From positions 41,690 to 105,689 of the forward strand of contig JADKCG010000011.1 of the NCBI GenBank assembly GCA_016714745.1: a stretch of DNA of 64,000 nt, in the 5' to 3' direction. This document shows positions 13,734 to 40,241 of the stretch, in pieces. How positions within the stretch are numbered: the first letter of the stretch is position 1; each line of letters opens with the position of its first letter. The notes under the pieces are model-generated. The model did not search any database. It was not told the DNA's origin and was given only the letters and a program-made list of their open reading frames with translations. Both the position numbers and the translations under genes were made by a program. Origin of the DNA: Elusimicrobiota bacterium (lineage in GTDB: Bacteria > Elusimicrobiota > Elusimicrobia > FEN-1173).

Positions 13734-14489
13734 ATGAATTGGTTTCATAAGAATAGAAAAAAGATCTTTTTGTTTGTGATCGCGATTTTCGTGATCGGCT
13801 CTTTTGCGGGGTTCGGAAGCTATTTTTTAACCCAATCCCCCTTTGACGCCGCCATTCAGGTCAACGGCCGGAAAATCCCTTACAAACAATTTGAAAGCCT
13901 CTATCAACGGGTCATTGAAGAACAGCGGCAGAGATCTCCCGACCCCTTGACCGATCCTCAACGGGAATATATCAAACGCCAGGTGGTCCAGTCCCTCGTT
14001 CAAGAAGAAGTCTTTTTGATGGAAGCGGAAAAATTGGGCATCCATGCGACGGATGCGGAATTGGCTCAGGTGATCCAGAGCATTCCGGTTTTTCAACGGG
14101 AGGGCCGTTTTGATGTTCGGACCTACCAAGAAATACTGGGACGGCTCCGTCTGCGGGTGGAAGATTTTGAAGCGGAACAGCGGCGCCAACTGAAGGTCCA
14201 GAAAGCTCAGTTCGTGATGGCGTCGGGCGTCAAACTTTCCTCTCTCGAGATTCCCGCCAAAGTCCAAGCGGCCTTGGCCCAAGCCAAAGAAGAGGACCGG
14301 AAAAAGATGCTGGAGAACATGGACGGATTCCGCGAAAACCTTCGTCGGCAAGAAGTCCAGGCGTGTCTCCAAGAATGGTACGGCGACATCAACACCAGGC
14401 TGAAAGTTAAAGTGCTCTTGAATAAGTTGGAACCCGGCCCCAAGCCCTCCACACCCGCCGTTCCCACCCCCACTGCCCCCCTCAATTAG
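13734..14489 (+). CDS. SurA-N/PpiD-like membrane-anchored chaperone-domain protein (no PPIase motif seen)
   Basis: An N-terminal TM helix is followed by AIQVNGRKIPYKQFESLYQ...VQEEVFLMEAEKLGIHATDAELAQVIQSIPVFQ. Confidence 0.55.
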   Translation: MNWFHKNRKKIFLFVIAIFVIGSFAGFGSYFLTQSPFDAAIQVNGRKIPYKQFESLYQRVIEEQRQRSPDPLTDPQREYIKRQVVQSLVQEEVFLMEAEKLGIHATDAELAQVIQSIPVFQREGRFDVRTYQEILGRLRLRVEDFEAEQRRQLKVQKAQFVMASGVKLSSLEIPAKVQAALAQAKEEDRKKMLENMDGFRENLRRQEVQACLQEWYGDINTRLKVKVLLNKLEPGPKPSTPAVPTPTAPLN

Positions 14490-14595
14490 CCGGGATTCCC
14501 CGGTTGGCGAGGGGCTACCGTCGACAGGGTCCGCAACAGAATTTTCCAGCCCTCCCGGACGGAAATGCTCAGTCAACTTAAATTTTCAGGTGAGG
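14490..14595 (-). repeat. About 105-nt imperfect-palindrome intergenic repeat, copy 1
   Basis: The reverse complement aligns almost base for base with 15343-15451 and 30467-30574 (..cctgaaaatttaagttgactgagcatttccgtccgggagggctggaaaattctgttgcggaccctgtcgacggtagcccc..ccaaccggggaatcccgg). Confidence 0.9.
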
Positions 14596-15342: not shown

Positions 15343-15451
15343 TTAACCTGAAATTTTCAGCGGACTGAGCATTTCCTTCCGGGAGGGTTGGAAAATTCTG
15401 TTTCGGACCCTGCCGACGGTAGTCCTGTGCCAACCGGGGAATCCCGGTTAA
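15343..15451 (+). repeat. About 105-nt imperfect-palindrome intergenic repeat, copy 2
   Basis: ttaacctgaaattttcagcggactgagcatttccttccgggagggttggaaaattctgtttcggaccctgccgacggtagtcctgtgccaaccggggaatcccggttaa. The termini are TTAACC / GGTTAA. Confidence 0.9.
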
Positions 15452-28802: not shown

Positions 28803-29567
28803 ATGCACCCGATCCTCTTCCGCTGGGGCCCCTTCACCCTCCACACCTACGGACTTTTTGCGGCCCTGGGATTTTTAGCCGGCTACGGGCTGGCCAACAC
28901 GACCGCAAAACGAAGGGGCCTTCCCCCGCCCTTGCGGGGGACGCTTTGGTCCCCCTTCTCATCGGCGGAATTTTGGGCGCCCGAATTTTCTATGTCATTT
29001 TCCATGCGGCAGAATTTTCGGGGGTTTGGCTGGACACCCTCAAAATCTGGCAGGGCGGTCTCATGTGGCAGGGCGGATTTTTGGGCGGCGTTATGGCTTT
29101 AGCGATCTTCGTTCATCGGCGGAAAATTCCGTTCCTCTCTGGCGGATGCCTTTTCCCCGGCGGTCGCTCTCGAGCAAGCCGTGGGCCGAATCGGATGTTT
29201 GTTCGCCGGCTGTTGTTTCGGGAAGACCTGCGACCTCCCCTGGGCCATCACGTTTCATAACGCCGAAAGCTTAGCGCCCACAGGCCAAGCGCTCCACCCC
29301 ACACAACTGTATGACGCAGGGCTCAACCTCGTCATCACCGCTCTTCTCCTTCGACTATCCAAAACCGGCTGGGCCAAACAAAGCGGACAGACCACGGGAC
29401 TTTATCTGCTCTTGGCTGGCCTGGCGCGACTGGCCGTGGAACCGTTCCGCGCCGACGCCCGAGGAACGGGGCTGGGGATCTTTTCGGCGACGGGGCTCGT
29501 GGCCATTGGGTTGATCATCGCGGGAACAACGATGAGCGTTGTCGTTCAATCCCGGCGCGCCCCATGA
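28803..29567 (+). CDS. lgt: Prolipoprotein diacylglyceryl transferase, frame interrupted twice
   Basis: MHPILFRWGPFTLHTYGLFAALGFLAGY.. joins ALAGDALVPLLIGGILGARIFYVIF...IWQGGLMWQGGFLGG.., which joins ADAFSPAVALEQAVGRIGCLFAGCCFGK...HPTQLYD. The shifts are at the C5 run 28923-28927 and at about 29120-29141. Confidence 0.88.
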
Positions 29568-30469
29568 AGGAAGAGAAAGAATTTGTCTTTTTGGACGAGG
29601 GAGAACGACTGGATCGGTTCCTGACGCGGTCCCTGGCTCCGCTGTCACGCACGCGAGTGCAACGACTGATCGAGGAAGGGGCGGTGACGGTGAACCGACG
29701 CACGGAACCGGCCCGCCGGCTTCTGGAGAAGGGAGATCGGGTACTGGTTCAAATTCCAACCTTCTCCGCTCTTCCCCCCGCCGCTGTTGAAAGTGTTCCG
29801 ATCCTGTATGAAGACGGCGATATCATTGTGGTGGACAAACCGGCAGGGGTGGTGGTGCACCCCGCGGGGCCCTACCGAACGGATACGCTGATCCAACGAC
29901 TGTGGCCAAAACTTTCCGCGGGGTGGGCCGTCACCGGTCAACGACCCGCCACCGATCGACCCGGCGTGGTTCACCGATTGGACAAGGGCACCTCCGGCGT
30001 GATGGTGATCGCCAAAACTCCCGCCGCCGCCGAAAACATCTCCCACCAGTTCGCGGCGCGAACGGTGAAGAAAACCTATTGGGCCTTGGTGCAGGGAACA
30101 CTCACGGCCCCCGGACGAATTCGGTCGTTGGTCGGACGATCCCGCCACACTCCCCAAAAAATGTCCACCGAGAGCGGCCGCCCTTCAGAAACAGAATACA
30201 TCGTTTTAAAAATCTTCCCCAAAACCCATCCCCCCACCACGCTTTTAGAAGTTCATCCGCGAACCGGACGAACCCACCAAATCCGGGTCCAATTGGCGGC
30301 GCTGGGACACCCGCTCGTAGGAGACACCCTCTACGGCGGCCCCCCGGGCCCGCGACCCCTCCTCCACGCCCTGCGGATTGAATTCCGTCATCCTCGATCC
30401 GGAAAAATCCTATCGTTCCAAGTCCCCCCCCCGGGGGACGTCGTTGTTCCCACCCACGCCGAGACCTAA
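29564..30469 (+). CDS. rluD: RluA/RluD-family pseudouridine synthase
   Basis: The N-terminus is S4-like (RLDRFLTRSLAPLSRTRVQRLIEEGAVTVN). The catalytic motif is HRLDKGTSGVMVIAK, followed by RTHQIRVQLAALGHPLVGDTLYG. Confidence 0.88.
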   Translation: MKEEKEFVFLDEGERLDRFLTRSLAPLSRTRVQRLIEEGAVTVNRRTEPARRLLEKGDRVLVQIPTFSALPPAAVESVPILYEDGDIIVVDKPAGVVVHPAGPYRTDTLIQRLWPKLSAGWAVTGQRPATDRPGVVHRLDKGTSGVMVIAKTPAAAENISHQFAARTVKKTYWALVQGTLTAPGRIRSLVGRSRHTPQKMSTESGRPSETEYIVLKIFPKTHPPTTLLEVHPRTGRTHQIRVQLAALGHPLVGDTLYGGPPGPRPLLHALRIEFRHPRSGKILSFQVPPPGDVVVPTHAET

Positions 30470-30574
30470 CCTGAAAATTCCAGTTGACTGAGCATTTCCG
30501 TCCGGGAGGGTAGGAAAATTCTGTTCCGGACCCTGTCGACGGTATCCCTGTGCCAACCGGGGAATCCCGGCTAA
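30467..30574 (+). repeat. About 105-nt imperfect-palindrome intergenic repeat, copy 3
   Basis: taacctgaaaattccagttgactgagcatttccgtccgggagggtaggaaaattctgttccggaccctgtcgacggtatccctgtgccaaccggggaatcccggctaa. Confidence 0.9.
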
Positions 30575-36296: not shown

Positions 36297-36449
36297 GCGA
36301 TTTCTCCTTCATCTCGTCGTTGTCATTTCGCATTCGAGACGCTCTTCTCGGTTCGCTCAGAAAGACAACCGCCAGGTCAGACGCTTCAACGTCCTCTCTA
36401 AAACGGCGTTCTTGCAAAACCGAAACGCGATCCCTTCTGCGAGAGAGTC

Positions 36450-36989
36450 TTAGTTGGCCGATACCTCCACGGTAAACGACCGCAGGGTCATGATGGTCGA
36501 CGAGGTCGGCATGTCGATCTTAAACCACAGACCGCGGGTCGTCGTCGCGTTGAACACAGAACCGTCTTGGTCGCCGGAATACACAGCGCCAACGCCCGTG
36601 GCCAACACCGCCGACCCTTGCGTCACCACATCGTCGTTCGCGAGGAAGTTGCCCGCCGCCGGCGCCACCGAGTTAAACAACGCCCGCAGGTTATAGCGGT
36701 CCGCTCCGACCGTCGAACTCGACGTCCACACGCCGTCCGCCGTCTTGATCCGCAGTCCCAACGTTTCGGGAACTGTCCCGTTGTTGGTCACGGTCACTGA
36801 CGAACTCACGTTGTCAACGGACCCCAAGGTGAGCGTGCCGAGGGCCAACGTTCCCGTCGACAAGGTCAAGCTCTTCGATCCGTTCGGCGTCACGGTGAGG
36901 ATCAAGTCCGCCGTCGTTGCCGCTTTCACTCCTGAACCAAACAGCATGAGGCTTCCCAAAACAAGAAGCCCGGTGAGTGTTTTTTTCAT
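36450..36989 (-). CDS. Secreted 179-aa putative surface/fibre subunit, tandem copy A
   Basis: MKKTLTGLLVLGSLMLFGSGVKA/ATTADLILTVTPNGSKSLTLSTGTLALGTLTLGS...TVTNNGTVPETLGLRIKTADGVW...LWFKIDMPTSSTIMTLRSFTVEVSAN. RBS is GGAGACACACA. The 201-aa ORF-track version includes a non-genuine upstream extension. Confidence 0.7.
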   Translation of the reverse strand: MKKTLTGLLVLGSLMLFGSGVKAATTADLILTVTPNGSKSLTLSTGTLALGTLTLGSVDNVSSSVTVTNNGTVPETLGLRIKTADGVWTSSSTVGADRYNLRALFNSVAPAAGNFLANDDVVTQGSAVLATGVGAVYSGDQDGSVFNATTTRGLWFKIDMPTSSTIMTLRSFTVEVSAN

Positions 36990-37066
36990 TGTGTGTCTCC
37001 TTAGTTGGCTGCTACGTCCACGGTAAACGACCGCAGGGATGAGTATTCTTTTCATTGTCTGTCTCC

Positions 37067-37606
37067 TTAGTTGGCTGATACTTCCACGGTAAACGACCGC
37101 AGGGTCATGATGGTCGACGAGGTCGGCATGTCGATCTTAAACCACAGACCGCGGGTCGTCGTCGCGTTGAACACAGAACCGTCTTGGTCGCCGGAATACA
37201 CAGCGCCAACGCCCGTGGCCAACACCGCCGACCCTTGCGTCACCACATCGTCGTTCGCGAGGAAGTTGCCCGCCGCCGGCGCCACCGAGTTAAACAACGC
37301 CCGCAGGTTATAGCGGTCCGCTCCGACCGTCGAACTCGACGTCCACACGCCGTCCGCCGTCTTGATCCGCAGTCCCAACGTTTCGGGAACTGTCCCGTTG
37401 TTGGTCACGGTCACTGACGAACTGACGTTGTTAACGGACCCCAAGGTGAGCGTGCCGAGGGCCAACGTCCCCGTCGACAAGGTCAAGCTCTTCGTTCCGT
37501 TCGGCGTCACGGTGAGGATCAAGTCCGCCGTCGTTGCCGCTTTCACTCCTGAACCAAACAGCATGAGGCTTCCCAAAACAAGAAGCCCGGTGAGTGTTTT
37601 TTTCAT
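37067..37606 (-). CDS. Secreted 179-aa putative surface/fibre subunit, tandem copy B
   Basis: Differs from copy A by only a few residues (NGTKS for NGSKS, SVNNV for SVDNV) and is offset by exactly 617 nt. Confidence 0.7.
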   Translation of the reverse strand: MKKTLTGLLVLGSLMLFGSGVKAATTADLILTVTPNGTKSLTLSTGTLALGTLTLGSVNNVSSSVTVTNNGTVPETLGLRIKTADGVWTSSSTVGADRYNLRALFNSVAPAAGNFLANDDVVTQGSAVLATGVGAVYSGDQDGSVFNATTTRGLWFKIDMPTSSTIMTLRSFTVEVSAN

Positions 37607-37683
37607 TGTGTGTCTCCTTAGTTGGCTGATACTTCCACGGTAAACGACCGCAGGGATGAGTATTCTTTTCATTGTCTGTCTCC

Positions 37684-38224
37684 TTAGTTGGCTGATACTT
37701 CCACGGTAAACGACCGCAGGGTCATGATGGGCGACGAGGTCGGCATGTCGATCTTAAACCACAGACCGCGGGTCGTCGTCGCGTTGAACACAGAACCGTC
37801 TTGGTCGCCGGAATACACAGCGCCAACGCCCGTGGCCAACACCGCCGACCCTTGCGTCACCACATCGTCGTTCGCGAGGAAGTTGCCCGCCGCCGGCGCC
37901 ACCGAGTTAAACAACGCCCGCAGGTTATAGCGGTCCGCTCCGACCGTCGAACTCGACGTCCACACGCCGTCCGCCGTCTTGATCCGCAGTCCCAACGTTT
38001 CGGGGAACTGTCCCGTTGTTGGTCACGGTCACTGACGAACTGACGTTGTTAACGGACCCCAAGGTGAGCGTGCCGAGGGCCAACGTCCCCGTCGACAAGG
38101 TCAAGCTCTTCGTTCCGTTCGGCGTCACGGTGAGGATCAAGTCCGCCGTCGTCGCCGCTTTCACTCCTGAACCAAACAGCATGAGGCTTCCCAAAACGAG
38201 AAGCCCGGTGAGTATTTTTTTCAT
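37684..38224 (-). CDS. Secreted putative surface/fibre subunit, tandem copy C, with a 1-nt insertion (G4 versus G3 at 38002-38005)
   Basis: ORFs 37925-38224 and 37684-37995 together reproduce copies A and B. The span is 541 nt versus 540. Confidence 0.65.
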
Positions 38225-38298
38225 TGTGTTCCTCCTGTTGTTTATGATTTTGTGCCTTCAATTTCGGCCAACCCCTAAGGTTCCGATTGACCTTCTTC

Positions 38299-39992: not shown

Positions 39993-40104
39993 GGGAAACG
40001 ATGGTAGCACATTGGAGCGGAGGGGAAAGAAAATTGGCTTACGAATTATTGGGGAACATGCTTGTTCTCATGCACGGCAAATCCCTTCCTACAGACAGGG
40101 ACCT

Positions 40105-40241
40105 CACCTAGCCGCGAGGCAAACTGGGGAGGTATCTATCGACACTGCGGTTGGCACAGGGATACCGTCGACAGGGTTCGGAACAGAATTTTCCAACCCT
40201 CCCGGACGGAAATGCTCAGTTCACTGAAATTTTCAGGTTAA
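40105..40241 (-). repeat. About 105-nt imperfect-palindrome repeat, copy 4 (one end divergent)
   Basis: The reverse complement of 40149-40241 reads aacctgaaaatttcagtgaactgagcatttccgtccgggagggttggaaaattctgttccgaaccctgtcgacggtatccctgtgccaacc. The terminal CCGGGGAATCCCGG hairpin is replaced by unrelated sequence. Confidence 0.8.

Follow-up and report, generated by a model that had tools for sequence, protein, structure and literature searches.

A probable MITE family with TTAA-type target-site duplications lies dispersed between the genes of an Elusimicrobiota bacterium

What are the short repeats that recur between the genes of this stretch of Elusimicrobiota DNA, and how did they come to lie where they do? 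We analyzed a stretch of 64,000 nucleotides (hereafter, the window; G000:C11:41690-105689) together with the rest of the assembly that contains it (G000; 2.95 Mb on 38 contigs, 55% G+C, 83.7% complete as judged by marker genes). A sequence-only reading of the window had described four copies of the repeat and had listed among its candidate roles a non-autonomous mobile element akin to ERIC, Correia, and MITE sequences. That proposal stands: the target-site duplication, the 88 copies in the genome, the empty sites in sister species, and the tandem copies that share a target all argue for it, and we put the probability that the repeat is a MITE, a non-coding, non-autonomous DNA transposon, at about 0.88. 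The family is previously undescribed, but it is of a well-known kind and represents no new kind of system.

The four copies in the window lie where they had been reported, with limits refined here to include the duplicated target, and they are 87 to 95% identical in pairwise comparisons, which is beyond what chance can produce. Copy 1 (window 14486 to 14594, minus strand) is situated between convergent genes; on the plus strand it reads as TTAG at 14486-14489, a 101-bp core at 14490-14590, and TGAG at 14591-14594, the latter being the other copy of the target with one base changed relative to TTAG. Copy 2 (15343 to 15451, plus strand) has TTAA at 15343-15346 and 15448-15451 on either side of a core at 15347-15447. 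Copy 3, the copy first reported (30466 to 30574, plus strand), has CTAA at 30466-30469 and 30571-30574 around a core at 30470-30570 and is 96% identical to the family consensus. Copy 4 (40081 to 40241, minus strand) sits between divergent gene starts, with TTAA at 40238-40241 and the core running downward from 40237. It had been described as diverged at one end; rather, it belongs to a long subfamily, carrying an insertion of about 81 nt within the 3' terminal hairpin and lacking the last ~23 nt and the second copy of the target. A 43-nt or 81-nt insertion in this hairpin characterizes six copies in all, and the five outside the window (C6:24042, C7:77085, C7:94791, C20:64137, and C4:63646) all end in the usual GGAATCCCGG-YTAA. 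The positions of the neighboring genes bear out the earlier statement that all four window copies are intergenic, and the transposase families searched give no match on contig C11, in keeping with the reported absence of a transposase from the window. In another part of the window, positions 36423-38236 hold three tandem 617-bp units that are 98 to 99% identical, each encoding on the minus strand a protein of about 200 aa whose start (MKKTLTGLLVLGSLMLFGSGVKA...) resembles a signal peptide; in the third unit, the frame is split in two.

The repeat family extends throughout the genome. An iterated nhmmer search returned 88 matches in G000 on 28 of the 38 contigs, and 71 of these are near full length, spanning at least 95 of the 108 model positions. 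Together the matches account for 8.6 kb (0.29% of the genome sequence). The consensus is reproduced exactly by one copy, 12 copies are at least 95% identical to it, and the presence of such near-consensus copies suggests that the MITE has amplified recently.

Aligning all copies with their flanks defined both ends of the element and revealed the duplicated target. The conserved unit is a 101-bp core that starts with CCTGAAAATTTCAG and ends with CCGGGGAATCCCGG. The left terminal ~19 bp are CCTGAAAATTTCAGTTGAC, the right terminal ~19 bp, read inward, are CCGGGATTCCCCGGTTGGC, and there is a small palindrome at each end (CTGAAAATTTCAG and CCGGGGAATCCCGG). The core is flanked by a 4-bp target-site duplication of the type YTAR, predominantly TTAA. 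Thus, the termini TTAACC...GGTTAA, previously read as an inverted repeat, are actually the duplicated target (TTAA, CTAA, etc.) beside the CC and GG tips of the element. The left and right tetranucleotides are identical in 32 of 53 copies, compared to 12.8±2.4 when shuffled, and none of 10,000 shuffles reached 32. Matching pairs other than TTAA (n=13) comprise CTAA in eight cases and TTAG, CTAG, TTAC, TTAT, and TGAG in one case each, and the next four bases outward do not match between left and right in any copy. The first and fourth bases of the tetranucleotide change in concert on the two sides (T-T in 32 and C-C in 13 copies at position 1; A-A in 37 and G-G in 6 at position 4); therefore, the duplication is 4 bp long, and a 2-bp duplication of TA is excluded. 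In addition, two tandem pairs have one TTAA in common (C23:18712/18817 and C23:32684/32789), as would be expected if the duplicated target of one copy had served as the insertion site of the next.

The target also bears on where copies lie relative to genes. Although coding DNA contains 70% of all YTAR sites, the interiors of coding regions are free of copies. For 16 of 60 copies, a neighboring gene has its stop codon (TAA or TAG) inside the duplication, abutting the core, compared to 11% expected from accessible YTAR sites (p=7e-4); this enrichment is approximate, like all position statistics here, since it uses rough gene calls under which 80% of the genome is coding. Two window copies illustrate the arrangement: the TAG in the TTAG of copy 1 is the stop codon of the open reading frame at 13734-14489, and the TAA in the left CTAA of copy 3 is the stop codon of the open reading frame at 29564-30469. 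Given that YTAR includes TAA and TAG, and that the duplicated bases rebuild the target next to the gene, a copy that inserts at a stop codon does not alter the protein, which explains why many copies border on the ends of genes and why genes themselves stay uninterrupted. Between co-directional genes there is a weak orientation bias, with 28 copies antisense and 14 sense. The last codons of the open reading frame at 29564-30469, just upstream of copy 3, contain a hairpin of C9/G5 homopolymers (GTCCCCCCCCCGGGGGAC, window 30422-30439) that a simple scan scored as terminator-like.

We examined the distribution of the element in four genus-mates (G001 to G004), each a different species with about 70 to 75% identity to G000 in coding DNA and conserved gene order. 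The element is present in all four, with about 36, 24, 8, and 3 candidates at a first look, and no copy was found in the 36 other genomes of the family and class that were examined; it is also absent from the plasmid and phage collections searched. The JGI metagenome collection yielded a single diverged copy (two scans gave 0 and 1 match). An exact 19-mer of the right end was found outside the genus, in Desulfobacterales and other phyla; it is a chance match within a conserved coding gene (...ANRGEIP...).

Comparisons of individual sites, all of which are between species, revealed empty sites in both directions. No copy was detected at the place orthologous to copy 1 (window 14486-14594) in any of the four genus-mates, and the convergent genes at this site are 218 nt apart in G000 compared to about 4 nt in G002 and about 60 nt in G004. 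At copy 2, the orthologous spacer measures about 514 nt in G000 and about 98 nt in G001. Conversely, insertions in G004 and G002 map to matching places in G000 that are free of copies. In a look-up of flanking proteins for near-identical strains, three of the four proteins had no record and the fourth led to a contig of the same strain that is broken inside the repeat. Sequencing run ERR8482637 contains an identical contig. Overall, the repeat has the properties of a MITE: a non-coding core shorter than 300 bp (101 bp), dispersed copies, a duplication of fixed length, and presence or absence at orthologous places. We also observed that one 2.4-kb stretch (G000:C21:76410-78856) is 99.4% identical to locus L033 (G001:C1:1145012-1148103), the species being otherwise about 70 to 75% identical; this stretch bears the best-matching and only scored MITE copy of G001. 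Such near-identity could stem from horizontal transfer in the recent past or from misbinning of a contig.

On the sequence of its termini, the element can be assigned to a superfamily of TTAA-flanked MITEs with a common terminal repeat, CCYGRAWTYCCCRGTTGG, that is present in several genera within a single Elusimicrobiota family. Inverted pairs of a variant right-end motif were seen in the genus-mates, and a search for such pairs revealed further short elements: elements of 157, 158, and 206 bp in G000 (C6:82244, C18:89689, C22:28654, and C3:107538), a 161-bp family in G002, and elements of 156 to 300 bp in G007, G010, and G011, genomes from further genera of that family. The majority of these elements carry the terminal repeat CCTGRAATTCCCAGTTGG, with TTAA or a different YTAR tetranucleotide on their flanks. 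The two ends of the MITE itself agree at only about 10 of 19 positions; however, the terminal repeat of the sister families is intermediate between them, and we therefore read the two ends as probably diverged versions of one repeat. Two possible leads to a larger relative were rejected. A lone terminal repeat in G007:C35 precedes an open reading frame of 447 aa that encodes an HI0933-like flavoprotein and no transposase, and three 5' partial copies, considered as ends of a larger element, all stop near model position 45 and have nothing in common downstream.

Separately, the 14-bp palindrome of the right tip (CCGGGGAATCCCGG) occurs alone, with YTAA on either side, at six or more sites in G000 (C9:81047, C19:20696, C13:94155, C20:38163, C12:44174, and C21:51379), and in G002 (L052:5699-5719) a full copy is followed by a similar solo unit built on the left tip, TTAA-CCGCAATTTCAGG-TTAA. 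The simplest explanation for the solo palindromes would be a deletion with its endpoints in two AACC motifs, one at the left end and one directly preceding the palindrome of the right end.

Two other explanations for the repeats must be weighed against transposition by a DDE-type enzyme. One is that they are a structured non-coding RNA family, or an mRNA 3'-end stabilizer or terminator, in which each copy is retained for its fold. The consensus does form three hairpins, its folding z-scores are mildly negative (-2.2 and -2.5 for the two strands), many copies lie just past gene ends, and the weak orientation bias described above would also suit such a role. However, among 65 distinct copies, 82.7% of cells are paired compared to 82.5% with shuffled partners, a value that 173 of 500 shuffles reach, and pairs changed on both sides number 11 compared to 8.8±2.2 when shuffled. 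Compensatory changes are thus no more frequent than in shuffled controls, and the structured-RNA role that the sequence-only reading had kept as an alternative is left without support; because pairing does not exceed that of the shuffles, the fold is a legacy of the founding sequence that individual copies do not maintain. RNAalifold recovers hardly any consensus fold, the window has no Rfam match at the gathering level, and the element has none at E≤10, which agrees with the earlier remark that it was not recognized as a named family. The element also lacks a T-run or intrinsic terminator and a sigma-70-type promoter consensus, some copies lie between divergent starts, and a target duplication is not expected from an RNA gene. 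We consider an RNA role very improbable. The other explanation, that the repeats are REP/REPIN-like or IS200/IS605-type hairpin elements moved as single-stranded DNA by the product of a Y1 (HUH) transposase-like gene, draws on the small palindrome at either end, on the solo terminal palindromes, and on the nine proteins of about 335 aa with a Y1_Tnp (IS200-like) N-terminal domain that G000 encodes (C17:12481, C15:10727, C10:89266, C21:18213, C6:79757, C18:53620, C8:45525, C29:12020, and C29:15450). To our knowledge, Y1 transposition leaves no target duplication, and the 4-bp duplication with co-varying sequence therefore largely refutes this explanation. Moreover, all Y1 genes are more than 2 kb away from the nearest copy or hairpin, and Y1 genes are equally numerous (6 to 9) in genus-mates that are nearly without copies. 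We regard movement by a Y1 protein as barely credible. The nine Y1 paralogues of G000 are 40 to 90% identical to one another, and with 6 to 9 per genome across the five genomes of the genus, these proteins show no association with the MITE.

Returning to the MITE reading, we propose that a DDE-type transposase supplied from elsewhere would recognize the two terminal ~19-bp sequences (CCTGAAAATTTCAGTTGAC and CCGGGATTCCCCGGTTGGC), cut YTAR (mostly TTAA) with a 4-bp stagger, and join the element there; gap repair would then leave the tetranucleotide on either side. Direct observation covers the target duplication, the number and spread of copies, the empty sites, and the lack of conservation of the kind expected for an RNA; the MITE may still be active.

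We searched for the source of this transposase. No autonomous parent with both exact ends was found in the five genomes of the genus or in the family, and in G000 no transposase lies between any pair of ends spaced 0.2 to 8 kb. The most promising candidate relative is a divergent, intact 1,640-bp insertion sequence (IS) in G004:C23 that encodes a transposase of 457 aa. This protein matches the NCBIfam model for IS1380 family transposases over its full length with 127.6 bits, below the equivalog cutoff of 180 bits, and it matches PF13701 with 60.5 bits, above the cutoff. The IS has the tips CCTAAAAACGTAAGTT and CCTAAAACGTGAGTT (CCTA...) and is flanked by ATCAA on both sides. Its tip is identical to the left end of the MITE (CCTGAAAATTTCAGTT) at 12 of 16 positions, and the agreement with the right end is only about 8 of 19 in a hand alignment. 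An inward-facing CCTGGAATTCCC-GTTGG at L102:831 was considered as the right end of this IS and rejected; the true end, where the ATCAA flank matches, lies 500 bp nearer the gene. The closest annotated relative of the transposase, at 47% identity, is on a Polaromonas plasmid, in an element with the tips CCTATTTTCGGCAGTTAGC and CCTAGAAACGGCAGTTAGC (CCTA...) and the duplication TTAAA. Fragments of the 457-aa transposase occur in G000 (C30:3682-4083, 86% amino acid identity) and in G003, and searches of G001, G002, and the other genera examined revealed none.

The CC/GG tips and the 4-bp duplication of the MITE agree with those of the IS1380-type elements examined (CC...GG, 4 to 5 bp), and together with T(T/C)AA-type targets they would fit an IS1380-type mobilizer without proving one. 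Several observations count against this link: the likeness is confined to the outer ~16 bp of the left end, the intact IS was seen only once, and its duplication is ATCAA rather than YTAR. In addition, G002, G010, and G011 have MITEs of the superfamily but lack an IS1380-type transposase of the G004:C23 kind. We still take an IS1380-family transposase as the most likely mobilizing enzyme, a deduced class assignment to which we give even odds. A bolder version, which we think improbable, is that the element and its sister families, with their palindromic tips, are traces left by a TTAA-specific, piggyBac-like branch of IS1380 transposases in Elusimicrobiota. Because the enzyme is lacking in most genomes with these MITEs, an unrecognized or very divergent transposase may still be moving them; under this version, the solo units of TTAA, 14-bp palindrome, and TTAA could be by-products of transposase chemistry and not simple deletions.

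The ends of IS5-family elements usually start with GG or GA, not CC. An IS5-group transposase would nonetheless suit the target, given that a 4-bp 5'-YTAR-3' duplication is the documented signature of IS5 (PMC5009759) and that the spectrum seen here (TTAA, CTAA, TTAG, CTAG) agrees with it. However, in the five genomes of the genus, no IS5-group element was found whose tips are CC...GG or whose ends match, and the matches to DDE_Tnp_1, DUF4096, and DUF772 end otherwise, with a 9-bp duplication, with AGTCTGTAGAAAAA repeats, or as a degenerate fragment. Mobilization by an IS5-group enzyme instead of an IS1380-type one is thus possible but unlikely.

Other transposable elements were examined as parents and rejected. 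An IS4-like IS of 1.88 kb has CTTTCTATTACCCACAT repeats and a 9-bp duplication; its four copies in G000 (C14:25141-27020, C3:143004-144879, C10:97612-99485, and C17:15233-17105) are about 99% identical, with the transposase frame split into two open reading frames. A DUF772 IS of about 2.0 kb has AGTCTGTAGAAAAA as its repeats. The IS1380-like elements L098, L099, and L100 (tips CCCAGAAAATCC; one such element is in G000) show no visible TTAA-type duplication and a loose likeness to the MITE tips, the 404-aa DDE proteins of G002, G003, and G004 lack MITE-like ends, and an IS5/IS427-type fragment in G001 is degenerate with unusable ends. DDE_Tnp_4 and IS701 (DDE_5) have no match in the genus. A 140-bp segment beside IS copies proved to be an unrelated repeat.

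Some of these elements have features of their own. The DUF772 IS, which also carries a DDE domain, is present in at least nine copies and forms two arrays (G000:C2:129665-141611, C12:70945-89110, and C16:1-1789), with intact frames of 522 to 571 aa. Five of its copies are broken at one internal position by an element of about 300 bp with 26-bp inverted ends (GTGTTGCGACCGGCTAATTGGTTCA), and a sixth copy has about 124 bp at that same position. The 140-bp segment is 99% identical among its three occurrences (C14:4735-4874, C30:3445-3584, and C27:9624-9761), each beside a different transposase fragment, and possibly marks the end of an IS or a site favored for insertion.

These results allow about 90 intergenic stretches in G000, and more in its relatives, to be labeled as one MITE family instead of as candidate regulatory RNAs, and the family accounts for contig breaks in these metagenome assemblies. 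They also provide a clean case of a transposon whose target holds a stop codon, which allows it to land harmlessly right at gene ends. A full-text literature search found no description of MITEs in Elusimicrobiota, a little-studied and mostly uncultured phylum in which a MITE superfamily is now documented. The current understanding of how MITEs work is unchanged. If the IS1380 link is true, it would place a bacterial preference for TTAA-type targets among the prokaryotic relatives of piggyBac, which is relevant to target choice by transposases.

Compared with known systems, the MITE resembles the IS1380 family in its CC...GG tips, 4- to 5-bp duplication, T(T/C)AA-type targets, and the 12 of 16 positions that its left end shares with the genus-mate IS tip; it differs in that it encodes nothing, in that only the outer ~16 bp of one end are alike, and in the ATCAA duplication of the IS. 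The eukaryotic-type comparison is to piggyBac, which integrates at TTAA (PMC7351741) and of which IS1380 has been cited as a distant prokaryotic relative (PMC10140906); we treat the resemblance among the MITE, IS1380, and piggyBac as a lead, not a result. With IS5 of Escherichia coli, the MITE shares an identical target and duplication (5'-YTAR-3', 4 bp; PMC5009759), but the genomes examined yielded no IS5-type element whose terminal repeats match.

The MITE has no sequence similarity to Rfam families, plasmids, or phages, and its likeness to other short repeats is one of description. Correia/NEMIS elements of Neisseria are about 105 to 155 bp long, with 26-bp terminal repeats and a TA duplication in the Correia elements, and ERIC elements of enterobacteria are 127 bp long. 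Like the MITE, they are short, imperfectly palindromic, intergenic, and present in high copy number; by their descriptions, they are set apart by target duplication and host taxon and, for the Correia elements, by their tips, and we know of no 4-bp YTAR duplication in ERIC. The RUP element of Streptococcus pneumoniae is a 107-bp intergenic MITE with about a hundred copies per genome and stops in all frames, and its mobilization in trans is attributed to the transposase of an IS whose terminal repeats are similar (PMC2229807). RUP is nearly equal in size to the Elusimicrobiota MITE, likewise intergenic, and comparable in copy number; however, RUP targets TA and is linked to IS630-Spn1, whereas the MITE described here duplicates a 4-bp YTAR, has CC...GG tips, and occurs in Elusimicrobiota. 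By analogy, in size, copy number, and behavior, the MITE appears closest to RUP and the Correia elements.
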